From Octopus vulgaris (taxonomy: Eukaryota): 64,000 nucleotides of DNA. Positions 1 through 58,196 of this stretch are shown here, piece by piece. The position numbers were made by a program, and so were the translations under genes. The notes below the pieces were generated by a model. That model was not told the DNA's origin. It did not search any database and saw nothing but the letters and a program-made list of their open reading frames with translations. The stretch lies in the NCBI GenBank assembly GCA_951406725.2, contig OX597825.1, positions 28,520,001 through 28,584,000 of the forward strand, read 5' to 3'. How positions within the stretch are numbered: position 1 is the stretch's first letter; every line of letters starts with the position of its first letter.

Positions 1-1
1 G

Positions 2-3000
2 GCTATCAAATACAAAATTAACTTACGCAATGAATTTGTCTTTGGGGCAGTAAAAGATTTAAAACCGAAGAATTTGTATGACAGTAAGCTGAAATCATCG
101 TTGGAAGCAGTGAAAAGAACTAACTTGAAAGTAATTTTTCTGTTTGCTCCATTCCATATACAGCCAATCGTCTTTCGAGAAGCCTATCTTATGAACCTTT
201 CTTCTCTGCATGGATTCCAATGGGTTTTAATGAAAAAATACGCGCGAGAGTTTCCATTTGAGAACCATTCGGTTTGTAACAAAACATTAGAATGCACATT
301 AGCTTTTACTGGAACCTACCTCTTTGATTCGACCTACAATGTATCGGGTTACCAAACAGATAGTTGGAAACGAGTTCTTAATTATTATTTTAAAGAAGAC
401 CGTGTACTTTACAAAGGTGGAAGAGTTCGTCATAGGTCCTTTGAAATAGGAGCGTTAATGGGATTGGGTTATGACGCCGTGCACCTTTACGCTAAAGCGT
501 TAGCCATACTTCTCAATAAACGACTAACAATTAGAGGTAACAAAGTTAATTGGCTCATGCGCAAGACAACTATACATGGACTAACAGATAACGTATCTTT
601 AAATGCATACGGTGATAGAATTGGTTATTTCGGTTATCTGGCCCAAGTTAACCCAATCCCACGTTGGCCATATTTGCCGAAATCTAAAGTTATAACTTAC
701 GTAAAGTGTATTAAGAGATCGGAAGACGGTATTCAATTAGAAATACCTTACGAATCGGAAATACTTCCTCACAATAAAACTGCGGCACTGGTAGCATTTC
801 CTGTCAGTAAGGCACATAACACTAGACGATACATATCTTTATCGGGGATGGTTAGTCTCAATACACAAAAAATGATGCCAAAAGAGGGTGAAGATTGGCC
901 GCCAACCATTTTTATTCGGACAGAAAGTATAGTTCCACCATATTATTGCGTTCATGCCTGTGGATACAAATTAAAAGACCCCGGTAATATTAATGTTTTC
1001 GATCGAGGAATATGTCGTCCTGGTAACAAATGCGAATGCTTTGAAGGATTCGGGGGGAAGCATTGTCTCTCTGTTCAGTGCCATTGTTTACACGGCCTTT
1101 GCACTATTGAAGGTTCTTGCATATGTAATCCTGGTTATACAGGCCCCTCTTGTGGTGCAGCAATTTGTGAGGATTGTAATTTTGGTGTATGTGTAAAACC
1201 AGGTGTATGTGAATGCACTACTATAGTATATTTCGGTGAAAATTGTGCTATTCATATTTCATCCATCATTGTTCCAATATTATTTGCAGCACTTATTCTC
1301 ATTGGTATCTTTTATGTCGTGGCAGGAATAACTAGCTCGAAGACGAAAAGTATAATCTATCAAGACTGGATGATTGATTGGGACAACGTTACTGTACCTG
1401 AAGAATTAGGTATGGTAGGACAATCCAAGGGAATAATTAACAAAACGGTTGCAGCTTATAGATGGGACGATGAGAACTGGTATGTGAAAAAGATTAATAG
1501 TAAGACAATTCCTCCTGAAGATAAAAAGATTATTTCAGACATGGTCAAGTTAACTAAAACTAGACATTATAATCTAATTCGATACGGTGGATGCTGTTTG
1601 ACTTATCCTAACGTCAGTTTGTTCATGGAAATTGCTGACAAGGGGAGTATAGCGGATGTACTTGCCAATGAAACATTTGAGATCGGATGGGAATTTGGAT
1701 TTTCATTTTTAAAAGATATATGTTGCGGAATGGAATATTTGCATGACAAATCTGAAATCAAAAGCCATGGACGTCTGAAATCTTCCAACTGCTTGGTTGA
1801 TAAGCGCTGGACTGTACGTCTGTCAGGATTTGGTGCACCGTCTCTTCGTTATGGCAGCTACAGAATCCCAGAGTCTGAAGAAATGTCTGATTTAAAAGAT
1901 CTTTTTTGGACCGCACCCGAACTACTAAGGGATAACACAAATCTCGATGGAGTAAAGTCGGGCACACCGCAAGGAGATGTCTATTCATTTGCTATCGTTG
2001 CATGTGAAATTGCGACGAAGGTAAAACCATACCATTACGAACTGAAACATTTAAGTGAAAAAAGCATTTTAGATCTCATTAAAGATTCACATTCACGGGC
2101 CAATAAAGAAATACGACGTGTATGGGAGGGTATTGGTGGAGGTAAAATGATTTTTACGAGACCAATTTTAAGTGAAGATTTATTACCACACAGTAATCTA
2201 TCTAAGAAGCTGTTTAAAATAATGCTCGAAGAGTCTTGGAATGAGAAGGCATCGTCTCGACCGACTTTTAATAAGCTTAGCATCATTCTAAATGAAATGT
2301 ACCCCATAAAAGGAGAACTTATAGATAAATTAATCCAACTCTTGGAAACTTACTCCAATAATTTAGAAATGGTTGTAATAGAAAGAACCAGAGAACTAGA
2401 AGAAAAAAAAGCTAAAGCTGAGCAGCTATTGGGCCAGATGTTGCCCCCGAAAGTAGCTTGTGAACTGAAGCAAGTTGGTAAAGTGATACCGGAATTATTC
2501 GAAAATGCCACGGTATTCTTCAGTGATATCGTAAATTTTGACCGAATATGTAAAGAAAGTAAACCAATGGAAATCGTTGATTTTTTAAATGAAGTTTATA
2601 AAATATTTGACTCAGTTTTGGACGGCTATGATGTTTATAAAGTGGAAACCATCAGCGCTTCCTACATGGTAGTTAGTGGTATTCCAGAAAAGAATGGTGA
2701 TCGCCATGCAGGAGAAATTGCAACAATGGCTTTAGATCTGATGTCATATGCTACTCTACTCCATGTTCCCAACACGGAAAGTAATGTGCTACAATTACGA
2801 ATTGGAATGCATTCCGGCTCGGTAGTAAGTGGCGTGGTGGGGAAACTATTGCCTAGATTTTGTCTATTCGGAGACACCGTCAACACAGCTGCCAGAATGC
2901 AGTCTAGTTCTTATGCCTTACACATTCAAGTGAGCGAGACTACTGAAGCAATTCTTGATTCTTTAGGCGGTTATAAATTAGAATGTAGAGGGGAAAGAGA

Positions 3001-3115
3001 AGTAAGAGGTCGCGGATTAATGACAACGTACTGGCTGTGGGGTAAGGACACATTTATGAAAGAATTACCTGATATATCCCTAGCAGTCCCTCTCTCACAA
3101 CACACATTCAAATAA
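2..3115 (+). CDS. Receptor-type guanylyl cyclase-like protein, copy 1 (5'-partial, no lesion in the visible part)
   Basis: The frame is open from base 2 to TAA at 3113-3115. It encodes the C-terminal part of an ANF-receptor-like domain (GYDAVHLYAKA, IHGLTDNVSLNAYGDRIG), EGF repeats, a TM helix (IIVPILFAALILIGIFYVV), a kinase-homology domain (HGRLKSSNCLVD, LFWTAPELLR, GDVYSFAIV), a coiled coil (LETYSNNLEMVVIERT) and a cyclase ([28 protein letters not shown]). The G6 run at 1052-1057 is in frame. By homology the start lies ~1.9 kb upstream of the window. Confidence 0.93.
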   Translation, partial: AIKYKINLRNEFVFGAVKDLKPKNLYDSKLKSSLEAVKRTNLKVIFLFAPFHIQPIVFREAYLMNLSSLHGFQWVLMKKYAREFPFENHSVCNKTLECTLAFTGTYLFDSTYNVSGYQTDSWKRVLNYYFKEDRVLYKGGRVRHRSFEIGALMGLGYDAVHLYAKALAILLNKRLTIRGNKVNWLMRKTTIHGLTDNVSLNAYGDRIGYFGYLAQVNPIPRWPYLPKSKVITYVKCIKRSEDGIQLEIPYESEILPHNKTAALVAFPVSKAHNTRRYISLSGMVSLNTQKMMPKEGEDWPPTIFIRTESIVPPYYCVHACGYKLKDPGNINVFDRGICRPGNKCECFEGFGGKHCLSVQCHCLHGLCTIEGSCICNPGYTGPSCGAAICEDCNFGVCVKPGVCECTTIVYFGENCAIHISSIIVPILFAALILIGIFYVVAGITSSKTKSIIYQDWMIDWDNVTVPEELGMVGQSKGIINKTVAAYRWDDENWYVKKINSKTIPPEDKKIISDMVKLTKTRHYNLIRYGGCCLTYPNVSLFMEIADKGSIADVLANETFEIGWEFGFSFLKDICCGMEYLHDKSEIKSHGRLKSSNCLVDKRWTVRLSGFGAPSLRYGSYRIPESEEMSDLKDLFWTAPELLRDNTNLDGVKSGTPQGDVYSFAIVACEIATKVKPYHYELKHLSEKSILDLIKDSHSRANKEIRRVWEGIGGGKMIFTRPILSEDLLPHSNLSKKLFKIMLEESWNEKASSRPTFNKLSIILNEMYPIKGELIDKLIQLLETYSNNLEMVVIERTRELEEKKAKAEQLLGQMLPPKVACELKQVGKVIPELFENATVFFSDIVNFDRICKESKPMEIVDFLNEVYKIFDSVLDGYDVYKVETISASYMVVSGIPEKNGDRHAGEIATMALDLMSYATLLHVPNTESNVLQLRIGMHSGSVVSGVVGKLLPRFCLFGDTVNTAARMQSSSYALHIQVSETTEAILDSLGGYKLECRGEREVRGRGLMTTYWLWGKDTFMKELPDISLAVPLSQHTFK

Positions 3116-12628: not shown

Positions 12629-15600
12629 ATGACAATTGCATGCCTCATTCTTATCTCTACTTGGATGTTTGTGACAGGACAATTGGAATTATCATTTCTA
12701 CAATTTCACGAACCTCCCGCAATTATACCCGATGATCCTTCAAAGTTATACTATTCAGTGCCACTCAATCAAATGATCAGCAAACCGATCATTGTCGTTG
12801 CGTCTTATTCAAACGAGACACCTTTTTCTGAGGGAGAAGTCAATATGACGGCTACAATAGACAGCTATGCTGTTTCGCCATCTGGCGAGATTAATACCAA
12901 AGATACTTGGGCAGAAAGTGGCGGCCAACTGTGTCAGAAATCAGCATGGTGGTTGAATTATCCGGAGCGATATAACAGACATCTTGCGAAAACTCGTTGT
13001 CATACACCGCATTCTTCCATTCTAATGAAATCACGAATTTTTAATGGAAAACTCATATTTGATTGGATTTACCATAAACATACCATTGTACCTCCATCCA
13101 TGCGAATGTTCAGGATCGAAATACCAGATTATAAAATATACGTCGACTCTTTCCCAATATTTGTAACCAAACCTGCACACCGGTTAGTTGTAACGAAACA
13201 ACCACCTTTATATGTTTTTGCTAATATCGATTTTGATGTTGAGGTTGAAATAAGAGATGAAAGAGGGAATACTCTCATAAATGGTCTTGATTCGGTAGCA
13301 ATTGTGGAAATGACAATTCCTTACAATTATAAACGTTTCTATGCTGACCCAGAGAGAGAAATGATGATTGATTACACTAAAATTCGAATGGATGGAAAGG
13401 ATGTAACAATTGATTTTAAAACACGAGATATAATAATGCGTCAACAAGCAAATTATGGTAGGGCAAAATTTACTGGAGTTCGAATTTTAGACGTTACAGA
13501 AAATTTGCAACTAAATATTACTTTAACCATGGCAAGAGACCCATGGAGCAGAATTCCTGCTTGCTCAGAATGTTTCCTTGACATCGAACGTGCAAGACAG
13601 TTGTCTAGTGATAGAAAGTTTATTACTTTCCAACGATTAACAACTGAGGAAGAAGAAAAGATTCTACCTGTTGTCTTCACGAGGAATTTCTCGGTATTAT
13701 ATTTAATGGTAGATCGCATTGTTCTGGACAACTTCTCAAAAAGTATGTATTATAGACTTAAAAATAATGGGGGAATTGTAGAAGTACCTATCACTTGTCC
13801 TTTACTTTACGGCATGAGTATTTTAGCACTAGATGCTAGAGGTCATCGGATCTATTCAGGCCCTCACTCCACATTACGCCTATCAATTAATACAATCCCA
13901 GAAAATATATGCTTTTCAAAACATAGCACCGTGAGAATGTCAGATGGAAAAATCCACTTATTGGTATCTATTTGTGAAGTAGTCAATTCCGTCAAATTAA
14001 GAATAACTGTAACTAGTAGGAACAATATTTATTTCATTACTCCGGCTTTTCGTATAACAGGAAACATTACAATTGGACATTTTGGTGACCTTCGATTTAG
14101 TGGTGATGGAAAGGAAATTGACTCACATATCAATTCTTTTATACGATTCGCAATCAATGATGTTAATAATGGTATTATTGTCCCAGAATTAAGAAAGAAA
14201 GGATTGAAATTATATTTGAAGTCGTATAATATTCCAAACGAAAAATCTGCAACCTATAGAAAACTTGGGGATTTGGAAACTATTTCAACTAATATTCATT
14301 TGGTTATAAGTTCAATTCCAGGAAATGTTGCTAATGTTTTTAGTCCGTTCATAGTGAAGTTTAGGATACCTTATATTTCGACGATCGATTCTACCAGAGA
14401 ATACATCGATAAAGATATATACCCATTGTATAATAGTATAAGTTGGTCAGAGGAGGCGTTCTATAATTCAGTGTTTCAATGTGCTAAAGATAGGTTTTGG
14501 ACTGACATTGTAATCCTTCGATATCACGATATTAATTTAACTGGTTTATTCTATTCTGTGGCTACCAAATACAAAATTGACTTACGCAATGAATTTGTCT
14601 TTGGGGCAGTAAAAGATTTAAAACCGAAGAACTTGTATGACAGGAAGCTGAAATCATCGTTGGAAGCAGTGAAAAGAACTAACTTGAAAGTAATTTTTCT
14701 GTTTGCTCCATTCCATATACAGCCAATCGTCTTTCGAGAAGCCTATCTTATGAACCTTTCTTCTCTGCATGGATTCCAATGGGTTTTAATGAAAAAATAC
14801 GCGCGAGAGTTTCCATTTGAGAACCATTCGGTTTGTAACAAAAAATTAGAATGCACATTAGCTTTTACTGGAACCTACCTCTTTGATTCGACCTACAACG
14901 TATCGGGTTACCAAACAGATAGTTGGAAACGAGTTCTTAATTATTATTTTAAAGAAGACCGTGTACTTTACAAAGGTGGAAGAGTTCGTCATAGGTCCTT
15001 TGAAATAGGAGCGTTAATGGGATTGGGTTATGACGCCGTGCACCTTTACGCTAAAGCGTTTGCCAAACTTCTCAATAAACGACTAACATTTAGCGGTAAC
15101 AAGGTTAATTGGCTCATGCGCAAGACAACTATACATGGACTAACAGATAAAGTATCTTTAAATGCATACGGTGATAGAATTGGTTATTTCGGTTATCTGG
15201 CCCAAGTTAACCCAATCCCACGTTGGCCATATTTGCCGAAATCTAAAGTTATATCTTACGTAAAGTGTATTAAGAGATCGGAAGACGGTACTCAATTAGA
15301 AATACCTTACGAATCGGAAATACTTCCTCACAATAAAACTGCGGCACTGGTAGCATTTCCTGTCGTTAAGGCACATAACACTAGACGATACATATCTTTA
15401 TCAGGGATGGTTAGTCTCAATACACAAAAAATGATGCCAAAAGAGGGTGAAGATTGGCCGCCAACCATTTTTATTCGGACAGAAAGTATAGTTCCACCAT
15501 ATTATTGCGTTCATGCTTGTGGATACAAATTAAAAGACCCCGGTAATATTAATGTTTTCGATCGAGGAATATGTCGTCCTGGTAACAAATGCGAATGCTT

Positions 15601-17675
15601 TGAAGGATTCGGGGGGGAAGCATTGTCACTTTGTTCAGTGCCATTGTTTACACGGCCTTTGCACTATTGAAGGTTCTTGCATATGTAATCCTGGTTATAC
15701 AGGCCCCTCTTGTGGTGCAGCAATTTGTGAGGATTGTAATTTTGGTGTATGTGTAAAACCAGGTGTATGTGAATGCACTACTACAGTATATTTCGGTGAA
15801 AATTGTGCTATTCATATTTCATCCATCATTGTTCCAATATTATTTGCAGCACTTATTCTCATTGGTATCTTTTATGTCGTGGCAGGAATAACTAGCTCGA
15901 AGACGAAAAGTATAATCTATCAAGACTGGATGATTGATTGGGACAACGTTACTGTACCTGAAGAATTAGGTATGGTAGGACAATCCAAGGGAATAATTAA
16001 CAAAACGGTTGCAGCTTATAGATGGGACGATGAGAACTGGTATGTAAAAAAGATTAATAGTAAGACAATTCCTCCTGATGATAAAAAGATTATTTCAGAC
16101 ATGGTCAAGTTAACTAAAACTAGACATTATAATCTAATTCGATACGGTGGATGCTGTTTGACTTATCCTAACGTCAGTTTGTTCATGGAAATTGCTGACA
16201 AGGGGAGTATAGCGGATGTACTTGCCAATGAAACATTTGAGATCGGATGGGAATTTGGATTTTCATTTTTAAAAGATATATGTTGCGGAATGGAATATTT
16301 GCACGACAAATCTGAAATCAAAAGCCATGGACGTCTGAAATCTTCCAACTGCTTGGTTGATAAGCGCTGGACAGTACGTCTGTCAGGATTTGGTGCACCG
16401 TCTCTTCGTTATGGCAGCTACAGAATCCCAGAGTCTGAAGAAATGGCTGATTTAAAAGATCTTTTTTGGACCGCACCCGAACTACTGAGGGATAACACAA
16501 ATCTCGATGGAGTAAAGTCGGGCACACCGCAAGGAGATGTCTATTCATTTGCTATCGTTGCGTGTGAAATTGTGACGAAGGTAAAACCATACCATTACGA
16601 ACTGAAACATTTAAGTGAAAAAAGCATTTTAGATCTCATTAAAGATTCACATTCACGGGCCAATAAAGAAATACGACATGTATGGGAGAGTATTGGTGGA
16701 GGTAAAATGATTTTTACGAGACCAATTTTAAGTGAAGATTTATTACCAAACAGTAATCTATCTAAGAAGCTGTTTAAAAAAATGCTCGAAGAGTCTTGGA
16801 ATGAGATGGCATCGTCACGACCGACTTTTAATAAGCTTAGCATCATTCTAAATCAAATGTACCCCATAAAAGGAGAACTTATAGATAAATTAATCCAACT
16901 CTTGGAAACTTACTCCAATAATTTAGAAATGGATGTAATAGAAAGAACCAGAGAACTAGAAGAAAAAAAAGCTAAAGCTGAGCAGCTATTGGGCCAGATG
17001 TTGCCCCCGAAAGTAGCTTGTGAACTGAAACAAGTTGGTGAAGTGATACCGGAATTATTCGAAAATGCCACGGTATTCTTCAGTGATATCGTGAATTTTG
17101 GCCGAATATGTAAAGAAAGTAAACCAATGGAAATCGTTGATTTTTTAAATGAAGTTTATAAAATATTTGACTCAGTTTTGGACGGCTATGATGTTTATAA
17201 AGTGGAAACCATCAGCGCTTCCTACATGGTAGTTAGTGGTATTCCAGAAAAGAATGGTGATCGCCATGCAGGAGAAATTGCAACAATGGCTTTAGATCTG
17301 ATGTCATATGTTACTCTACTCCATGTTCCCAACACGGAAAGTAATGTGCTACAATTACGAATTGGAATGCATTCCGGCCCGGTAGTAAGTGGCGTGGTGG
17401 GGACTCTATTGCCTAGATTTTGTCTATTCGGAGACACCGTCAACACAGCTTCCAGAATGCAGTCTAGTTCTTATGCCTTACACATTCAAGTGAGCGAGAA
17501 TACTGCAGCAATTCTTGATTCTTTAGGCGGTTATAAATTAGAATGTAGAGGGGAAAGAGAAGTAAGAGGTCGCGGATTAATGACAACGTACTGGCTGTGG
17601 GGTAAGGACACATTTATGAAAGAATTACCTGATATATCCCTAGCAGTCCCTCTCTCACAACACACATTCAAATAA
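12629..17675 (+). pseudogene. Receptor guanylyl cyclase-like gene, copy 2; full length with a single +1 frameshift (G7 at 15611-15617); could be an intact gene if the run is miscalled
   Basis: ORF 12629-15670 (signal peptide MTIACLILISTWMFVTG plus ectodomain) and ORF 15552-17675 (EGF, TM, KHD, cyclase) join into 1681 aa if one G is removed. No introns. Confidence 0.88.
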
Positions 17676-18772: not shown

Positions 18773-23705
<4,933 letters not shown>

Positions 23706-31100: not shown

Positions 31101-34100
31101 ATGACAATTGCATGCCTCATTCTTATCTCTACTTGGATGTTTGTGACAGGACACTTGGAATTATCATTTCTACAATTTCACGAACCTCCTGCAATTATAC
31201 CCGATGATCCTTCAAAGTTATACTATTCAGTGCCACTCAATCAAATGATCAGCAAACCGATCATTGTCGTTGCCGTTTATTCAAACGGGACACCTTTTTC
31301 TGAGGGAGAAGTCAATACGACGGCTACAATAGACAGCTATGCTGTTTTGCCCTCTGGCGAGATTAATACCAAAGATACTTGGGCAGAAAGTGGCGGCCAA
31401 CTGTGTCAGAAATCAGCATGGTGGTTGAATTATCCGGAGCGATATAACAGACATCTTGCGAAAACTCGTTGTCATACACCGCATTCTTCCATTCTAATGA
31501 AATCACGAATTTTTAATGGAAAACTCATATTTGATTGGATTTACCATAAACATACCATTGTACCTCCATCCATGCGAATGTTCAGGATCGAAATACCAGA
31601 TTATAAAATATACGTCGACTCTTTCCCAATATTTGTAACCAAACCAGCACACCGGTTAGTTGTAACGAAACAACCACCTTTATATGTTGTGTCTAATGAC
31701 GATTTTGATGTTGAGGTTGAAATAAGAGATGAAGAAGGAAATACTCTCATAAATGGTCTTGATTCGGTAGCAATTGTGGAAATGACAATTCCTTACAATT
31801 ATAAACGTTTCTATGCTGACCCAGAGAGAGAAATGATGATTGATTACACTAAAATTCGAATGGATGGAGAGAATGTAACAATTGATTTTAAAACACGAGA
31901 TATAATAATGCGTCAACAAGCAAATTATGGTAAGGCAAAATTTACTGGAGTTCGAATTTTAGACGTTACACAAAATTTGCAACTAAATATTACTTTAACC
32001 ATGGCAAGAGACCCATGGAGCAGAATTCCTGCTTGCTCAGAATGTTTCCTTGACATCGAACGTGCAAGACAGTTGTCCAGTGACAGAAAGTTTATTACTT
32101 TCCAACGATTAACAACTGAGGAAGAAGAAAAGATTCTACCTGTTGTCTTCACGAGGAATTTCACGGTAATATATTTAATGGTAGATAGCATTGCTCTGGA
32201 CAACTTCTCAAAAAGTATGTATTCTAAACTTAAAAATAATGGGGGAATTGTAGAAGTACCTATCACTTGTCCTTTACTTTACGGCATGAGTATTTTAGCA
32301 CTAGATGCTATAGGTCATCGGATCTATTCAGGCCCTGACTCCACATTACGCCTATCTATTAATACAATCCCAGAAAATATATGTTTTTCAAAACATAGCA
32401 CCGTGAGAATGTCAGATGGAAAAATCCACTTATTGGTATCTATTTGTGAAGTAGTCAATTCCGTCAAATTAAGAATAACTGTAACTAGTATGAACGCTAT
32501 TTATTTCATTACTCCGGCTTTTCGTATAACAGGAAACATTACAATTGGACATTTTGGTGACCTTCGATTTAGTGGTGATGGAAAGGAAATTGACTCACAT
32601 ATCAATTCTTTTATACGATTCGCAATCAATGATGTTAATAATGGTATTATTGTCCCAGAATTAAGAAAGAAAGGATTGAAATTATATTTGAAGTCGTATA
32701 ATATTCCAAACGAAAAATCTGCAACCTATAGAAAACTTGGGGATTTGGAAACTATTTCAACTAATATTCATTTGGTTATAAGTTCAATTCCAGGAAATGT
32801 TGCTAATGTTTTTAGTCCGTTCATAGTGAAGTTTAGGATACCTTATATTTCGACGATCGATTCTACCAGAGAATACATCGATAAAGATATATACCCATTG
32901 TATAATAGTATAAGTTGGTCAGAGGAGGCGTTCTATAATTCAGTGTTTCAATGTGCTAAAGATAGGTTTTGGACTGACATTGTAATCCTTCGATATCACG
33001 ATATTAATTTAACTGGTTTATTCTATTCTGTGGCTATCAAATACAAAATTGACTTACACAATGAATTTGTCTTTGGGGCAGTAAAAGATTTAAAACCGAA
33101 GAACTTGTATGACAGGAAGCTGAAATCATCGTTGGAAGCAGTGAAAAGAACTAACTTGAAAGTAATCTTTCTGTTTGCTCCATTCCATATACAGCCAATC
33201 GTCTTTCGAGAAGCCTATCTTATGAACCTTTCTTCTCTGCATGGATTCCAATGGGTTTTAATGAAAAAATACGCGCGAGAGTTTCCATTTGAGAACCATT
33301 CGGTTTGTAACAAAAAATTAGAATGCACATTAGCTTTTACTGGAACCTACCTCTTTGATTCGACCTACAATGTATCGGGTTACCAAACAGATAGTTGGAA
33401 ACGAGTTCTTAATTATTATTTTAAAGAAGACCGTGTACTTTACAAAGGTGGAAGAGTTCGTCATAGGTCCTTTGAAATAGGAGCGTTAATGGGATTGGGT
33501 TATGACGCCGTGCACCTTTACGCTAAAGCGTTTGCCAAACTTCTCAATAAACGACTAACATTTAGCGGTAACAAGGTTAATTGGCTCATGCGCAAGACAA
33601 CTATACATGGACTAACAGATAAAGTATCTTTCAATGCATACGGTGATAGAATTGGTTATTTCGGTTATCTGGCCCAAGTTAACCCAATCCCACGTTGGCC
33701 ATATTTGCCGAAATCTAAAGTTATAACTTACGTAAAGTGTATTAAGAGATCGGAAGACGGTATTCAATTAGAAATACCTTATGAATCGGAAATACTTCCT
33801 CACAATAAAACTGCGGCACTGGTAGCATTTCCTGTCGGTAAGGCACATAACACTAGACGATACATATCTTTATCGGGGATGGTTAGTCTCAATACACAAA
33901 AAATGATGCCAAAAGAGGGTGAAGATTGGCCGCCAACCATTTTTATTCGGACAGAAAGTATAGTTCCACCATATTATTGCGTTCATGCCTGTGGATACAA
34001 ATTAAAAGACCCCGGTAATATTAATGTTTTCGATCGAGGAATATGTCGTCCTGGTAACAAATGCGAATGCTTTGAAGGATTCGGGGGAAGCATTGTCACT

Positions 34101-36145
34101 CTGTTCAGTGCCATTGTTTACACGGCCTTTGCACTATTGAAGGTTCTTGCATATGTAATCCTGGTTATACAGGTCCCTCTTGTGGTGCAGCAATTTGTGA
34201 GGATTGTAATTTTGGTGTATGTGTAAAACCAGGAGTATGTGAATGCACTACTATAGTATATTTCGGTGAAAATTGTGCTATTCATATTTCATCCATCATT
34301 GTTCCAATATTAGTTGCAGCACTTATTCTCATTAGTATATCTTATGTCGTGGCAGGAATAACTAGCTCGAAGACGAAAAGTATAATTTATCAAGACTGGA
34401 TGATTGATTGGGACAACGTTACTGTACCTGAAGAATTAGGTATGGTAGGACAATCCAAGGGAATAATTAACAAAACGGTTGCAGCTTATAGATGGGACGA
34501 TGAGAACTGGTATGTAAAAAAGATTAATAGTAAGAAAATTCCTCCTGATGATAAAAAGATTATTTCAGACATGGTCAAGTTAACTAAAACTAGACATTAT
34601 AATCTGATTCGATACGGTGGATGCTGTTTGACTCATCCTAATGTCAGTTTGTTCATGGAAATTGCTGACAAGGGGAGTATAGCGGATGTACTTGCCAATG
34701 AAACATTTGAGATCGGATGGGAATTTGGATTTTCATTTTTAAAAGATATATGTTGCGGAATGGAATATTTGCACGACAAATCTGAAATCAAAAGCCATGG
34801 ACGTCTGAAATCTTCCAACTGCTTGGTTGATAAGCGCTGGACAGTACGTCTGTCAGGATTTGGTGCACCGTCTCTTCGTTATGGCAGCTACAGAATCCCA
34901 GAGTCTGAAGAAATGGCTGATTTAAAAGATCTTTTTTGGACCGCACCCGAACTACTGAGGGATAACACAAATCTCGATGGAGTAAAGTCGGGCACACCGC
35001 AAGGAGATGTCTATTCATTTGCTATCGTTGCGTGTGAAATTGCGACGAAGGTAAAACCATACCATTACGAACTGAAACATTTAAGTGAAAAAAGCATTTT
35101 AGATCTCATTAAAGATTCACATTCACGGGCCAATAAAGAAATACGACGTGTATGGGAGAGTATTGGTGGAGGTAACATGATTTTTACAAGACCAATTTTA
35201 AGTGAAGATTTATTACCAAACAGTAATCTATCTAAGAAGCTGTTTAAAAATATGCTCGAAGAGTCTTGGAATGAGAAGGCATCGTCACGACCGACTTTTA
35301 ATAAGCTTAGCATCATTCTAAATCAAATGTACCCCATAAAAGGAGAACTTATAGATAAATTAATCCAACTCTTGGAAACTTACTCCAATAATTTAGAAAT
35401 GGTTGTAATAGAAAGAACCAGAGAACTAGAAGAAAAAAAAGCTAAAGCTGAGCAGCTATTGGGCCAGATGTTGCCCCCGAAAGTAGCTTGTGAACTGAAA
35501 CAAGTTGGTGAAGTGATACCGGAATTATTCGAAAATGCCACGGTATTCTTCAGTGATATCGTAAATTTTGGCCGAATATGTAAAGAAAGTAAACCAATGG
35601 AAATCGTTGATTTTTTAAATGAAGTTTATAAAATATTTGACTCAGTTTTGGACGGCTATGATGTTTATAAAGTGGAAACCATCAGCGCTTCCTACATGGT
35701 AGTTAGTGGTATTCCAGAAAAGAATGGTGATCGCCATGCAGGAGAAATTGCAACAATGGCTTTAGATCTGATGTCATATGTTACTCTACTCCATGTTCCC
35801 AACACGGAAAGTAATGTGCTACAATTACGAATTGGAATGCATTCCGGCCCGGTAGTAAGTGGCGTGGTGGGGAAACTATTGCCTAGATTTTGTCTATTCG
35901 GAGACACCGTCAACACAGCTGCCAGAATGCAGTCTAGTTCTTATGCCTTGCACATTCAAGTGAGCGAGAATACTGCAGCAATTCTTGATTCTTTAGGCGG
36001 TTATAAATTAGAATGTAGAGGGGAGAGAGAAGTAAGAGGTCGCGGATTAATGACAACGTACTGGCTGTGGGGTAAGGACACATTTATGAAAGAATTACCT
36101 GATATATCCCTAGCAGTCCCTCTCTCACAACACAAATTCAAATAA
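31101..36145 (+). pseudogene. Receptor guanylyl cyclase-like gene, copy 3; full length with a single -1 frameshift (G5 at 34083-34087); could be an intact gene if the run is miscalled
   Basis: ORFs 31101-34226 and 34349-36145. The total span of 5045 bp is the intact length minus 1. Confidence 0.88.
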
Positions 36146-45443: not shown

Positions 45444-48400
45444 ATGACAATTGCATGCCTCATTCTTATCTCTACTTGGATGTTTGTGACAGGACAATTG
45501 GAATTATCATTTCTACAATTTCACGAACCTCCAGCAATTATACCCGATGATCCTTCAAAGTTATACTATTCAGTGCCACTCAATCAAATGATCAGCAATC
45601 CGATCATTGTCGATGCCTTTCATTCAAACGGGACACCTTTTTCTGGGGGAGAAATCAATACGACGGCTACAATAGACAGCTATGCTGTTTCGCCATCTGG
45701 CGAGATTAATAACAAAGATACTTGAGCAGAAAGTGGCGGCCAACTGTGTCAGAAATCAGCATGGTGGTTGAATTATCCGGAGCGATATAACAGACATCTT
45801 GCGAAAACTCGTTGTCATACACCGCATTCTTCCATTCTAATGAAATCACGAATTTTTAATGGAAAACTCATATTTGATTGGATTTACCATAAACATACCA
45901 TTGTACCTCCATCCATGCGAATGTTCAGGATCGAAATACCAGATTATAAAATATACTTCGACTCTTTCCCAATATTTGTAACCAAACCTGCACACCAGTT
46001 ATTTATAACGAAACAACCACCTGTAACAGTTATGGCTAATCACGATTTTGATGTTGAGGTTGAAATAAGAGATGAAGAAGGGAATACTCTCATAAATGGT
46101 CTTGATTCGGTAGCAATTGTGGAAATGACAATTCCTTACAATTATAAACGTTTCTATGCTGACCCAGAGAGAGAAATGATGATTGATTACACTAAAATTC
46201 GAATGGATGGAGAGGATGTAACAATTGATTTTAAAACACGAGATATAATAATGCGTCAACAAGCAAATTATGGTAAGGCAAAATTTACTGGAGTTCGAAT
46301 TTTAGACGTTACACAAAATTTGCAACTAAATATTACTTTAACCATGGCAAGAGACCCATGGAGCAGAATTCCTGCTTGCTCAGAATGTTTCCTTGACATC
46401 GAACGTGCAAGACAGTTGTCCAGTGACAGAAGGTTTATTACTTTCCAACGATTAACAATTGAGGAAGAGGAAAAGATTCTACCTGTTGTCTTCACGAGGA
46501 ATTTCTCAGTACATTATCAAATTCTGAATAAAGTTGATATGGACACCTCATCAAAAAGTATGTATTCTAAACTTAAAACTAATGAAAATGTTGTAGAGGT
46601 GCCTATTAGTTGTCCTTTACTTAACGGCATAAGTATTTTTGCAATGGATTTCATACACCGTCGGATCCATTCAGTCCCTGACTCCATATTACGCCTAAAT
46701 ATTAATACAATCCAAAAAAATATGTTTGTCAAAGGATTACACTAGGAATATGTCAGAAGGAAAAGCTCTCGTATTTGTATCTATATGTGAGGTAGTCAAC
46801 TCCGACAAACTGATAATAACTTACGATGGTCCACCTACTGTTACTTACAGAACTCCAGCTTTTCGTATAATAGGAAACATTACAATTGGACATTTTGGTG
46901 ACCTTCGATTTAGTGGTGATGGAAAGGAAATTGACTCACATATCAATTCTTTTATACGATTCGCAATCAATGATGTTAATAATGGTATTATTGTCCCAGA
47001 ATTAAGAAAGAAAGGATTGAAATTATATTTGAAGTCGTATAATATTCCAAACGAAAAATCTGCAACCTATAGAAAACTTGGGGATTTGGAAACTATTTCA
47101 ACGAATATTCATTTGGTTATAAGTTCCATTCCAGCAAATGTTGCTACTGTTTTTAGTCTGTTCTTAGTGAGGTTCAGGATACCATATATTTCGACGATCG
47201 ATTCTACCAGACAACACATCGATAAAGATATATACCCATTGTATTATTGTATACGTTGGTCAGAGGTGGTGTTCTATAATTCAGTGTTTCAATGTGCTAA
47301 AGATAAGTTTTGGACTGACATTGTAATCCTTCGATATCACGATATTAATTTAACTGGTTTATTCAAATGCTTTGAAGGATTCGGGCGGAAGCATTGTCAC
47401 TCTGTTCAGTGCCATTGTTTACACGGCCTTTGCACTATTGAAGGTTCTTGCATATGTAATCCTGGTTATACAGGCCCCTCTTGTGGTGCAGTAATTTGTG
47501 AGGATTGTAATTTTGGTGTATGTGTAAAACCAGGTGTATGTGAATGCACTACTATAGTATATTTCGGTGAAAATTGTGCTATTCATGTTTCATCCATCAT
47601 TGTTCCAATATTATTTGCAGCACTTATTCTCATTGGTATCTTTTATGTCGTGGCAGGAATAACTAGCTCGAAGACGAAAAGTATAATCTATCAAGACTGG
47701 ATGATTGATTGGGACAACGTTACTGTACCTGAAAAATTAGGTATGGTAGGACAATCCAAGGGAATAATTAACAAAACGGTTACAGCTCATAGATGGGACG
47801 ATGAGAACTGGTATGTAAAAAAGATTAATAGTAAGACAATTCCTCCTGATGATAAAAAGATTATTTCAGACATGGTCAAGTTAACTAAAACTAGACATTA
47901 TAATCTGATTCGATACGGTGGATGATGTTTGACTTATCCTAACGTCAGTTTGTTCATGGAAATTGCTGACAAGGGGAGTATAGCGGATGTACTTACCAAT
48001 GAAACATTTGAGATCGGATGGGAATTTGTATTTTCATTTTTAAAAGATATATGTTGCGGAATGGAATATTTGCACGACAAATCTGAAATCAAAAGCCATG
48101 GACGTCTGAAATCTTCCAACTGCTTGGTTGATAAGCGCTGGACTGTACGTCTGTCAGGATTTGGTGCACCGTCTCTTCGTTATGGCAGCTACAGAATCCC
48201 AGAGTCTGAAGAAATGGTTGATTTAAAAGATCTTTTTTGGACCGCACCCGAACTACTGAGGGATAACACAAATCTCGATGGAGTAAAGTCGGGCACACCG
48301 CAAGGAGATGTCTATTCATTTGCTATCATTGCGTGTGAAATTGCGACGAAGGTAAAACCATACCATTACGAACTGAAACATTTAAGTGAAAAAAGCATTT

Positions 48401-49444
48401 TAGATCTCATTAAAGATTCACATTCACGGGCCAATAAAGAAATACGACGTGTATGGGAGAGTATTGGTGGAGGTAAAATGATTTTTACGAGACCAATTTT
48501 AAGTGAAGATTTATTACCAAACAGTAATCTATCTAAGAAGCTGTTTAAAAAAATGCTCGAAGAGTCTTGGAATGAGAAGGCATCGTCACGACCGACTTTT
48601 AATAAGCTTAGCATCATTCTAAATCAAATGTACCCCATTAAAGGAGAACTTATAGATAAATTAATCCACCTCTTGGAAACTTATTCCAATAATTTAGAAA
48701 TGGTTGTAATAGAAAGAACCAGAGAAATAGAAGAAAAAAAAGCTAATGCTGAGCAGCTATTGGGCCAGATGTTGCCCCCGAAAGTAGCTTGTGAACTGAA
48801 GCAAGTTGGTGAAGTGATACCGGAATTATTCGAAAATGCCACGGTATTCTTCAGTGATATCGTGAATTTTGGCCGAATATGTAAAGAAAGTAAACCAATG
48901 GAAATCGTTGATTTTTTAAATGAAGTTTATAAATTATTTCACTCAGTTTTGGACGGCTATGATGTTTATAAAGTGGAAACCATCAGCGCTTCCTACATGG
49001 TAGTTAGTGGTATTCCAGAAAAGAATGGTGATCGCCATGCAGGAGAAATTGCAACAATGGCTTTAGATCTGATATCATGTTACTCTACACCATGTTCCCA
49101 ACACGGAAAGTAATGTGCTACAATTACGAATTGGAATGCATTCCGGCCCGGTAGTAAGTGGCGTGGTGGGGAAACTATTGCCTAGATTTTGTCTATTCGG
49201 AGACACCGTCAACACAGCTTCCAGAATGCAGTCTAGTTCTTATGCCTTACACATTCAAGTGAGCGAGAATACTGCAGCAATTCTTGATTCTTTAGGCGGT
49301 TATAAATTAGAATGTAGAGGGGAAAGAGAAGTAAGAGGTCGCGGATTAATGACAACGTACTAGCTGTGGGGTAAGGACACATTTATGAAAGAATTACCTG
49401 ATATATCCCTAGCAGTCCCTCTCTCACAACACAAATTCAAATAA
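45444..49444 (+). pseudogene. Receptor guanylyl cyclase-like pseudogene, copy 4
   Basis: TGG>TGA at 45723-45725; 2-bp deletion at ~46722; ~1041-bp in-frame deletion at ~47364; TGC>TGA at 47923-47925; 2-bp deletion at ~49077; TGG>TAG at 49361-49363. Confidence 0.93.
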
Positions 49445-55266: not shown

Positions 55267-58196
55267 CACTATCAAATTCTGAATAAAGTTGATATGGACA
55301 CCTCATCAAAAAGTATGTATTCTAAACTTAAAACTAATGAAAATGTTGTAGAGGTGCCTATTAGTTGTCCTTTACTTAACGGCATAAGTATTTTTGCAAT
55401 GGATTTCATACACCGTCGGATCCATTCAGGTCCTGACTCCATATTACGCCTAAATATTAATACAATCCAAAAAAATATATGTTTGTCAAAGGATTACACT
55501 AGGAATATGTCAGAAGGAAAAACTCTCGTATTTGTATCTATATGTGAGGTAGTCAACTCCGTCAAACTGATAATAACTTACGATGGTCCACCTACTGTTA
55601 CTTACAGAACTCCAGCTTTTCGTATAATAGGAAACATTACAATTGGACATTTTGGTGACCTTCGATTTAGTGGTGATGGAAAGGAAATTGACTCACATAT
55701 CAATTCTTTTATACGATTCGCAATCAATGATGTTAATAATGGTATTATTGTCCCAGAATTAAGAAAGAAAGGATTGAAATTATATTTGAAGTCGTATAAT
55801 ATTCCAAACGAAAAATCTGCAACCTATAGAAAACTTGGGGATTTGGAGACTATTTCAACTAATATTCATTTGGTTATAAGTTCCATTCCAGGAAATGTTG
55901 CTACTGTTTTTAGTCTGTTCTTAGTGAAGTTTATGATACCTTATATTTCGACGATCGATTCTACAAGAGAACACATCGATAAAGATATATACCCATTGTA
56001 TAATAGTATAAGTTGGTCAGAGGTGGTGTTCTATAATTCAGTGTTTCAATGTGCTAAAGATAGGTCTTGGACTGACATTGTAATCCTTCGATATCACGAT
56101 ATTAATTTAACTGGTTTATTCAAATGCTTTGAAGGATTCGGGCGGAAGCATTGTCACTCTGTTCAGTGCCATTGTTTACACGGCCTTTGCACTATTGAAG
56201 GTTCTTGCATATGTAATCCTGGTTATACAGGCCCCTCTTGTGGTGCAGCAATTTGTGAGGATTGTAATTTTGGTGTATGTGTAAAACCAGGAGTATGTGA
56301 ATGCACTACTATAGTATATTTCGGTGAAAATTGTGCTATTCATATTTCATCCATCATTGTTCCAATATTATTTGCAGCACTTATTCTCATTGGTATCTTT
56401 TATGTCGTGGCAGGAATAACTAGCTCGAAGACGAAAAGTATAATCTATCAAGACTGGATGATTGATTGGGACAACGTTACTGTACCTGAAAAATTAGGTA
56501 TGGTAGGACAATCCATACCTAATAATTAACAAAACGGTTGCAGCTTATAGATGGGACGATGAGAACTGGTATGTAAAAAAGATTAATAGTAAGACAATTC
56601 CTCCTGATGATAAAAAGATTATTTCAGACATGGTCAAGTTAACTAAAACTAGACATTATAATCTGATTCGATACGGTGGATGATGTTTGACTTATCCTAA
56701 TGTCAGTTTGTTCATGGAAATTGCTGACAAGGGGAGTATAGCGGATGTACTTGCCAATGAAACATTTGAGATCGGATGGGAATTTGGATTTTCATTTTTA
56801 AAAGATATATGTTGCGGAATGGAATATTTGCACGACAAATCTGAAATCAAAAGCCATGGACGTCTGAAATCTTCCAACTGCTTGGTTGATAAGCGCTGGA
56901 CTGTACGTCTGTCAGGATTTGGTGCACCGTCTCTTCGTTATGGCAGCTACAGAATCCCAGAGTCTGAAGAAATGGCTGATTTAAAAGATCTTTTTTGGAC
57001 CGCACCCGAACTACTGAGGGAAAACACAAATCTCGATGTAGTAAAGTCGAGCACACCGCAAGGAGATGTCTATTCATTTGCTATCGTTGCGTGTGAAATT
57101 GCGACGAAGGTAAAACCATACCATTACGAACTGAAACATTTAAGTGAAAAAAGCATTTTAGATCTCATTAAAGATTCACATTCACGGGCCAATAAAGAAA
57201 TACGACGTGTATGGGAGAGTATTGGTGGAGGTAAAATGATTTTTACAAGACCAATTTTAAGTGAAGATTTATTACCAAACAGTAATCTATCTAAGAAGCT
57301 GTTTAAAAAAATGCTCGAAGAGTCTTGGAATGAGAAGGAATCTTCACGACCGACTTTTAATAAGCTTAGCATCATTCTAAATCAAATGTACCCCATTAAA
57401 GGAGAACTTATAGATAAACTAATCCACCTCTTGGAAACTTACTCCAATAATTTAGAAATGGTTGTATTAGAAAGAACCAGAGAACTAGAAGAAAAAAAAG
57501 CTAAAGCTGAGCAGCTATTGGGCCAGATGTTGCCCCCGAAAGTTGCTTGTGAACTGAAACAAGTTGGTGAAGTGATACCGGAATTATTCGAAAATGCCAC
57601 GGTATTCTTCAGTGATATCGTGAATTTTGGCCGAATATGTAAAGAAAGTAAACCAATGGAAATCGTTGATTTTTTAAATGAAGTTTATAAATTATTTGAC
57701 TCAGTTTTAGACGGCTATGATGTTTATAAAGTGGAAACCATCAGCGCTTCCTACATGGTAGTTAGTGGTATTCCAGAAAAGAATGGTGATCGCCATGCAG
57801 GAGAAATTGCAACAATGGCTTTAGATCTGATGTCATATGGTACTCTACTCCATGTTCCCAACACGGAAAGTAATGTGCTACAATTACGAATTGGAATGCA
57901 TTCCGGCCCGGTAGTAAGTGGCGTGGTGGGGAAACTATTGCCTAGATTTTGTCTATTCGGAGACACCGTCAACACAGCTTCCAGAATGCAGTCTAGTTCT
58001 TATGCCTTACACATTCAAGTGAGCGAGAATACTGCAGCAATTCTTGATTCTTTAGGCGGTTATAAATTAGAATGTAGAGGGGAAAGAGAAGTAAGAGGTC
58101 GCGGATTAATGACAACGTACTGGCTGTGGGGTAAGGACACATTTATGAAAGAATTACCTGATAGCAGTCCCTCTCTCACAACACAAATTCAAATAA
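55267..58196 (+). pseudogene. Receptor guanylyl cyclase-like pseudogene, copy 5 (5'-truncated)
   Basis: Lacks the upstream region and the first ~356 codons. It shares the ~1.04-kb deletion (~56121) and the TGA (56681-56683) with copy 4, and has a +1 frameshift at ~56516 and an 8-bp deletion at ~58161 that extends the last ORF to 58243. Confidence 0.93.

Follow-up and report, generated by a model that had tools for sequence, protein, structure and literature searches.

Why should five neighbouring receptor guanylyl cyclase genes of the octopus all lack the second metal-binding aspartate of the cyclase site? The window, as we call the whole 64,000-nucleotide stretch of Octopus vulgaris DNA analysed here, holds five head-to-tail copies of an intronless receptor guanylyl cyclase gene and belongs to a larger Octopus tandem array of such genes, which have an Ig-like/ANF/EGF ectodomain. 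A gene copy runs to about 1681 codons and encodes, in this order, tandem Ig-like beta-sandwiches, an ANF receptor domain, EGF repeats, one hydrophobic helix, a kinase-homology domain, a coiled coil and a guanylyl cyclase, which together make up the layout of a receptor guanylyl cyclase, the helix being its one membrane helix and the cyclase being of class III. All five copies lie on the plus strand. Copy 1 (1..3115), whose 5' end is beyond the window, is open over 1037 codons from the ANF receptor domain to the cyclase and gives Pfam matches to PF01094 (residues 25-207), PF25024 (331-417), PF00069 (485-758) and PF00211 (831-1012); within the window it is the only copy free of frameshifts and stops. 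Copy 2 (12629..17675) is full length at about 1681 codons, with a signal-like N-terminus and some 460 amino acids of tandem Ig-like beta-sandwiches ahead of a remainder like copy 1, and copy 3 (31101..36145) is also full length. Neither has an in-frame stop across 1680 codons, but in copy 2 a G-run near 15612 is one G too long and shifts the frame, and in copy 3 the same run, near 34082, is one G short. These homopolymer indels may be assembly errors; contigs of sequencing runs X6 and X16 span the G-run gap-free, which is not enough to prove that an indel is absent. Copies 4 (45444..49444) and 5 (55267..58196) are pseudogenes. The former has an early stop, two 2-nt deletions, a 1041-bp deletion after 47363, a TGA at 47923-47925 and a late stop; the latter is 5'-truncated, has the 1041-bp deletion and the TGA (56681-56683) in common with copy 4, and adds a 1-nt insertion and an 8-nt deletion. 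The junction of the common deletion is visible as a loose end in run X2, and copy 5 is 99.4-99.6% identical to the N-terminal 782 residues of the O. vulgaris gene model P0164.

The N-terminal part of the ectodomain has features of its own. Its 463 amino acids give a confident fold prediction (pLDDT 91.5), the structure matches being to generic Ig-like proteins only, at a TM-score of at most 0.29; in the Atlas, matches of at least 0.9 are all without names and recognition falls under the mark. The corresponding stretch of about 460 residues in copy 2 (12680-14068) is conserved in molluscs and one annelid and has no Pfam match at the curated cut-off. Within it, a patch at approximately 13650-14070 sets copies 2 and 3 far from copies 4 and 5 (46460-46880 and 55270-55630): between the two pairs dS is 0.09-0.38 with dN/dS of 0.8-1.0, against a dS of about 0.02 elsewhere in the same gene. 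This suggests either that conversion from older paralogues has made the stretch a mosaic or that it is diversifying. In the spacer that follows copy 2 lies a 758-aa open frame (20177-22453), flanked by long AT microsatellites, which from its motifs we take to resemble a LINE reverse transcriptase.

At the hairpin that should carry the second metal aspartate, all five copies read KVETISASYMVVSG. The motif ETISASY starts at 2645, 17205, 35675, 48976 and 57734 and is written each time in identical codons (GAA ACC ATC AGC GCT TCC TAC). In copy 1 the hairpin occupies 2645..2665 on the plus strand, with the Ala codon GCT at 2657-2659 and the Glu (2645) retained; on the same strand the Ala codon lies at 17217-17219 in copy 2, 35687-35689 in copy 3, 48988-48990 in copy 4 and 57746-57748 in copy 5. 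The alanine aligns with Asp893 of GC-A (chain 9bcv_A). Across 387 cyclase domains, found in 382 of the 385 proteins fetched, this column holds Asp 382 times, Ala three times, Asn once and a gap once; of the three Ala rows, one is copy 1 of the window, one is the annotated model of copy 5, and the third is a degenerate protein that is unrelated. With Asp in 382 of 387 domains, its replacement in the window copies is not a matter of chance. Nor is it an assembly error, since two independent long contigs carry the Ala codon: that of run X1 over 2258-2740 has three differences, all at places other than the Ala codon, and that of run X6 over 2471-3088 has eight, matching eight listed places outside it. 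Among the pieces listed, run X2 has no long one over this codon, and X16, perhaps an RNA run, does not reach it. The rest of the site is a mixture of altered and retained residues. The P-loop of copy 1, FSDIVNFD (2519..2542, plus strand), has the first metal Asp (2525-2527), with Asn for the canonical Gly and Asp for the canonical Thr; the latter residue, which follows the P-loop Phe, is Gly in copies 2-5. Between 2798 and 3007 on the same strand copy 1 retains the phosphate Arg (2798), the guanine Cys (2861), the Asn (2882) and the transition-state Arg (2894), and has Arg at the Lys site (3005), the roles being those given in Table 1 of PMC6005667. FSDIVNF, PRFCLFG and TVNTA[AS]RM occur in all five copies, the last two out of frame in copy 4 after a 2-nt deletion. 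The guanine-specific Glu and Cys are thus both present in the window chains, and in none of the five copies does one chain carry both metal-binding aspartates. In these respects, from the missing aspartate to the residues that surround it, the preliminary description of the locus was accurate, though it did not mention the frameshifts and stops of copies 2-5. At three conserved sites copy 1 also carries changes that are private or nearly so, namely Gly to Asp after the P-loop Phe (2540-2542), Pro to Ser (2819) and Ser to Ala (2891); the long contigs of the sequencing runs compared have none of them.

How old is the loss of the aspartate? In the closest relatives the residue is in place: O. sinensis P0002, which is 95% identical, reads ESISDSY, as do Argonauta P0003 and P0004, and O. 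bimaculoides P0266 and P0006 read ETISDSY. The O. vulgaris models tell the same for the neighbouring genes. P0164 continues past copy 5 into a further copy and stops at the coiled coil; P0166, whose contig has the same length, starts at the coiled coil, with a cyclase that has ETFSDSY, and goes on into another copy with ETISDSY. From these two models we infer that both Asp-bearing domains belong to the next genes of the same array, so that the statement that every copy lacks the aspartate holds for all five within the window and fails beyond it. The Asp-bearing copy that follows the window is divided between P0164 and P0166 at an A-run in the coiled coil and may, for that reason, be frameshifted or misassembled too. 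Ala is the sole intracellular residue that sets copies 1-5 apart from all six other domains compared. Intracellular synonymous divergence among the five copies is 0.014-0.040; pN/pS is 0.61-0.70 for the intracellular part and 0.76-0.83 for the whole gene, on few changes, and for the cyclase it is 0.84 when 10 pairs, which are not independent, are pooled, and 0.91 when variants are counted (4.5 synonymous and 13.5 non-synonymous). Copies 2 and 3 compared alone give a cyclase dN/dS of 0.22, on six changes. These comparisons show one recent Asp-to-Ala substitution that the latest tandem duplications spread into copies 1-5, and a set of copies apparently under relaxed selection and partly dead. 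The loss of the aspartate was probably a near-neutral event. We reject an adaptive loss that would define the family, given that 21 of the 23 domains of the clade keep Asp and that, within it, Ala is confined to copies 1-5. The earlier view of the change as a meaningful feature that predates the duplications, and is not decay, is not supported, given the same count and the lesions and apparently relaxed selection of the copies. That account had itself named Asp-bearing homologues combined with a dN/dS near 1 as the mark of simple decay: the relatives do keep Asp, and a cyclase pN/pS of 0.84-0.91, on few changes, comes close to that value.

A different picture emerges when the whole clade to which the window genes belong is set beside its sister. 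Among the 23 window-type domains, the P-loop Gly is replaced by Asn or Asp in all, the Thr that follows is absent from all, and the hairpin Gly before the second Asp is replaced in all by Ser or, in one member, Cys; no domain has the canonical P-loop (GFT) and hairpin Gly. The IVNF-type P-loop and the serines that flank the Asp are accordingly clade-wide and older than the Ala. Retained are the Glu (22/23), Cys (20/23), Asn (22/23) and transition-state Arg (22/23), together with the first Asp (23/23), second Asp (21/23) and phosphate Arg (23/23). The sister clade is made up of six proteins that are built alike, among them Argonauta P0013 and O. vulgaris P0161, and its losses are the mirror image. 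It has the P-loop Gly and hairpin Gly in 6/6, both Asp residues in 5/6, and YSDIVGFT with ETIGDAY in 5/6, but retains Cys, Asn, Arg or Lys in 0/6: Cys has become Thr, Asn has become Leu or Gln, Arg has become Thr or Asn, and Lys is lost. The remaining 358 domains keep the same catalytic residues at 95% or more. A test on the columns that are invariant in 28 outgroup domains, run on 18 window-type and five sister domains (excluding P0014 and P0165 as doubly degenerate and P0164 as a duplicate of copy 5), found four columns lost in the window clade only, all in the P-loop or hairpin. Of the six lost in the sister clade only, the Cys, Asn/Arg or KGKG segments account for five. Among the full-length members of the family, P0014 and P0165 have lost residues of both halves, and their existence means that non-catalytic roles occur in it.

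A tree of the kinase and cyclase domains (62 intracellular regions) recovers the two clades as sisters (SH-aLRT 99), and so does, with support of 100/100, a tree of 26 ectodomains that includes zero catalytic columns and in which the subclades receive 100/100 and 95/97. Gastropod, bivalve and annelid orthologues, from Haliotis, Potamilus, Crassostrea, Argopecten, Mytilus and Dimorphilus, fall outside both clades and are canonical in both halves. Every named member of either clade is an octopod, and two of the four named octopod species, O. vulgaris and Argonauta, have both paralogue types together, P0161 and P0013 respectively being the complementary candidate partner of alpha or C1 type. P0011, P0165, P0169 and P0173, on ENA contigs of 40-144 kb, are complete 1690-aa products; their completeness on contigs of this size suggests intronless genes in both clades, and this in turn hints at a retrocopy origin. 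Members of the same EGF-bearing family in rows of cnidarian type also form two clades (P0187 and P0197 of Hydra vulgaris, P0188 of Hydractinia, P0018, P0022, P0189-P0192 and P0201), with seven rows that lack the transition-state Arg, some of them the Asn as well, and three that have an altered P-loop, VVGFG; Hydra has one member per clade, on contigs of equal length. This is possibly a parallel split of the same family. P0030, P0048 and P0186 (Hymenolepis) are cyclases with the metal half intact and without Asn/Arg.

What could account for the mirror-image losses? Based on the conserved residues, we propose a model in which duplication and complementary erosion led to a heterodimeric receptor guanylyl cyclase, and in which the Ala is tolerated because the window chain may already have been a 'beta-like' subunit; we consider the model about evenly poised between right and wrong. 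A gene duplication in the lineage leading to octopods would have produced two receptor cyclase paralogues. In the P0013/P0161-type paralogue the half made of metal ligands and P-loop (Asp, Asp, Arg, GFT, GD) would have survived and Cys, Asn, Arg and Lys would have disappeared, and the window-type paralogue would have kept Glu, Cys, Asn, Arg and Lys/Arg as its P-loop and hairpin eroded. A mixed dimer would then have one complete site, composed of the partner's two Asp residues and the base and transition-state residues of the window chain, namely Asp1497, Asp1541 and Arg1588 of the partner with Glu882, Cys954, Asn961, Arg965 and Arg1002 of the window chain. The window chain's own Asp residues would sit in a pseudo-site, so that their replacement by Ala would cost little, and homodimers of the Ala type would be inactive. 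The supply of metal residues and of base and transition-state residues by different subunits is set out in Table 1 of PMC6005667 and in PMC2576301. According to the former, sGC alpha with Asp530Ala has no detectable activity; by analogy an Ala homodimer should be dead, as the preliminary description had expected. Its further suggestion, that the chain could complete a site with a partner, gains a complementary candidate in O. vulgaris and Argonauta, although the likely partner would be the sister paralogue and not a conventional cyclase. On the whole, the original observation stands and its interpretation is supported in part.

Two structural points bear on such a dimer. In a model of sGC the beta-chain Gly that precedes the second Asp adjoins an alpha-chain Cys (PMC3591389); the equivalent octopus positions, now Ser885 and Thr1609, have changed together, and the predicted interface includes the two without listing them as a pair. 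The predicted complex of a window-type with a sister-type chain scores 0.75 against 0.00 for the best control, in a set without a homodimer control and with similar dimers already solved, so that the score expresses likeness only. Among solved pairs 51 of 78 attain the mark for such scores, and among mismatched pairs 2 of 108; the runs agree in at least 89% of contacts, and the partner pLDDT is at least 85. As like dimers have been solved and cyclase interfaces are promiscuous (PMC3591389), we do not read the score as a sign of selective binding. Against the heterodimer stand the window clade's own metal residues, since the first Asp and the phosphate Arg are kept in 23/23 and the second Asp in 21/23: judged from these residues, its metal half may still work, and Asp-bearing homodimers may still be active. 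The doubly degenerate P0014 and P0165 also count against it, as does the occurrence of both types by name in no more than two of the four named octopod species. That the P-loop and hairpin changes disable this half is likewise a prediction, and active bacterial cyclases exist with Asn or Asp at the P-loop Gly. In sGC beta, too, one Asp is kept in the pseudo-site (PMC6005667). If copies 1-5 are drifting pseudogenes, as they may be, their Ala says nothing about a heterodimer, and the pattern at the level of the clades stands.

The most serious competitor to the heterodimer is simple decay, in which Asp-bearing window-type chains form active homodimers, copies 1-5 descend from one dead copy by unequal crossing-over, and the P0161 type is an unrelated pseudo-cyclase. 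The stop and 1041-bp deletion common to copies 4 and 5, the frameshifts of copies 2 and 3 as assembled, the pN/pS values of cyclase and whole gene, the further changes of copy 1 at conserved sites, and the conservation, elsewhere in the clade, of both Asp residues and the phosphate Arg all agree with it. It leaves the mirror-image losses and the canonical metal half of the sister clade unexplained, however, and it sits uneasily with a copy 1 that is open over 1037 codons, with stop-free copies 2 and 3 whose cyclase dN/dS is 0.22 (on six changes) and with a G-run that contigs of X6 and X16 span gap-free. We regard simple decay as rather unlikely. That the entire array, or the Ala within it, is an assembly artefact is a negligible prospect: the homopolymer indels of copies 2 and 3 do resemble long-read errors, but the same codon recurs in five diverged copies and in the X1 and X6 contigs, and the junction common to copies 4 and 5 appears in X2.

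The other explanations assign a function to the altered chains. Selection of the Ala copies as decoy or dominant-negative receptors, which bind ligand or poison active dimers, would fit the dimer-forming coiled coil kept in five near-identical copies as well as the reported dominant-negative effect of Asp893Ala in GC-A, for which our literature search found no confirming paper. At least two of the five copies are unable to encode a protein, though, and there is no sign of purifying selection specific to the Ala copies; we found no evidence for the dominant-negative role raised in the preliminary description and consider this reading improbable. Marginally less probable again is that the two types of paralogue are for the most part non-catalytic and act as adhesion or scaffold receptors, in which the cyclase fold serves dimerisation only. 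A large Ig-like/ANF/EGF ectodomain and the full-length yet doubly degenerate P0014 and P0165 are in keeping with this, but a scaffold would need neither half of the site, and each clade has kept one complete half nearly without exception. Coleoids recode their RNA heavily, and A-to-I editing might restore the P-loop and hairpin Gly, making the Asp-bearing copies normal enzymes at the protein level. The window codons AAT and AGC are indeed editable towards Gly codons; no editing can make an Asp codon out of GCT, however, or bring back the P-loop Thr or the Ala after the Asp, and in one member of the clade the hairpin Gly is replaced by Cys. We rate editing as very improbable.

How does the proposed heterodimer compare with known cyclases? 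The best matches of the window protein among solved structures are GC-A (NPR1; E 6.5e-67) and GC-C (2.7e-64), homodimeric receptors that share its ANF-type ectodomain and single helix as well as the kinase-homology domain, the coiled coil and the class III cyclase. Unlike these, the window genes have a tandem Ig-like N-terminus, EGF repeats, an intronless tandem arrangement and an altered P-loop and hairpin, and copies 1-5 are without the second Asp. In its catalytic residues the window type appears most similar to sGC beta or adenylyl cyclase C2, placed in the body of a receptor cyclase. Table 1 of PMC6005667 has sGC beta-1 and adenylyl cyclase C2 keeping the base, ribose and phosphate residues while the partner supplies the metal Asp, and the window-type chain would be alike; AC5 C2 reads ASIANFS and KTIGSTY, near the IANFS and ISxSY of the window clade. 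The likeness has its bounds, in that sGC beta-1 and C2 lack the first Asp, which the window clade keeps throughout, having lost the second only in the five recent copies, and in that they are soluble or parts of a single-chain enzyme, whereas the window type is a membrane receptor. The closest functional parallel to the octopus pair is ODR-1/DAF-11 of Caenorhabditis elegans, described in PMC5225109 as an obligate heterodimeric receptor guanylyl cyclase in which each chain gives essential residues to one site. There, as proposed here, two receptor cyclases feed one site, a function shown in the nematode and predicted in the octopus. As ODR-1/DAF-11 is already known, the octopus pair would be a variant of known obligate heterodimeric receptor cyclases and not a new kind. 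The nematode chains come from a different phylum and have a different ectodomain; the octopus chains are sister paralogues with canonical mollusc and annelid outgroups, which would point to an origin of their own.

The sea urchin sperm guanylyl cyclase chemoreceptor also has the receptor cyclase layout, and 'speract receptor-like' is attached as an automatic label to P0006, P0162, P0164 and P0166. What suggests a role in sperm for the octopus genes is just these automatic names and a sperm-attracting peptide that has reportedly been described in octopus. A paper on squid sperm (PMC5636881) mentions guanylyl cyclase for the sea urchin only and lends such a role no support. Our literature search, which took in few subscription papers, returned no account of the octopus receptor family or of a cephalopod heterodimeric receptor cyclase.

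What are the implications of the complementary paralogues for octopus signalling? Taken alone the Asp-to-Ala substitution is minor; the pair is the finding worth testing. Going by their residues, the two octopus proteins probably have to pair for cGMP production. A wider version of the model, which we put forward tentatively and with more doubt than the heterodimer itself, is that octopods, possibly all coleoids, use an obligate heterodimer, evolved by duplication and reciprocal loss, in which a single alpha-like chain can combine with each member of a fast-growing beta-like set whose ectodomains are diversifying. These would form combinatorial cGMP receptors, perhaps chemosensory or on sperm, and the Ala copies would show the process at its final stage, the loss of the metal ligand in the pseudo-site. 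If the pairing is right, it would be a second animal origin of heterodimeric receptor guanylyl cyclases besides nematode ODR-1/DAF-11, and the canonical outgroups, together with an intermediate state in which most beta-like chains have both Asp residues, would make the passage from a two-site homodimer to a one-site heterodimer testable. It would also mean that ligand searches with either octopus gene expressed alone would give no signal.
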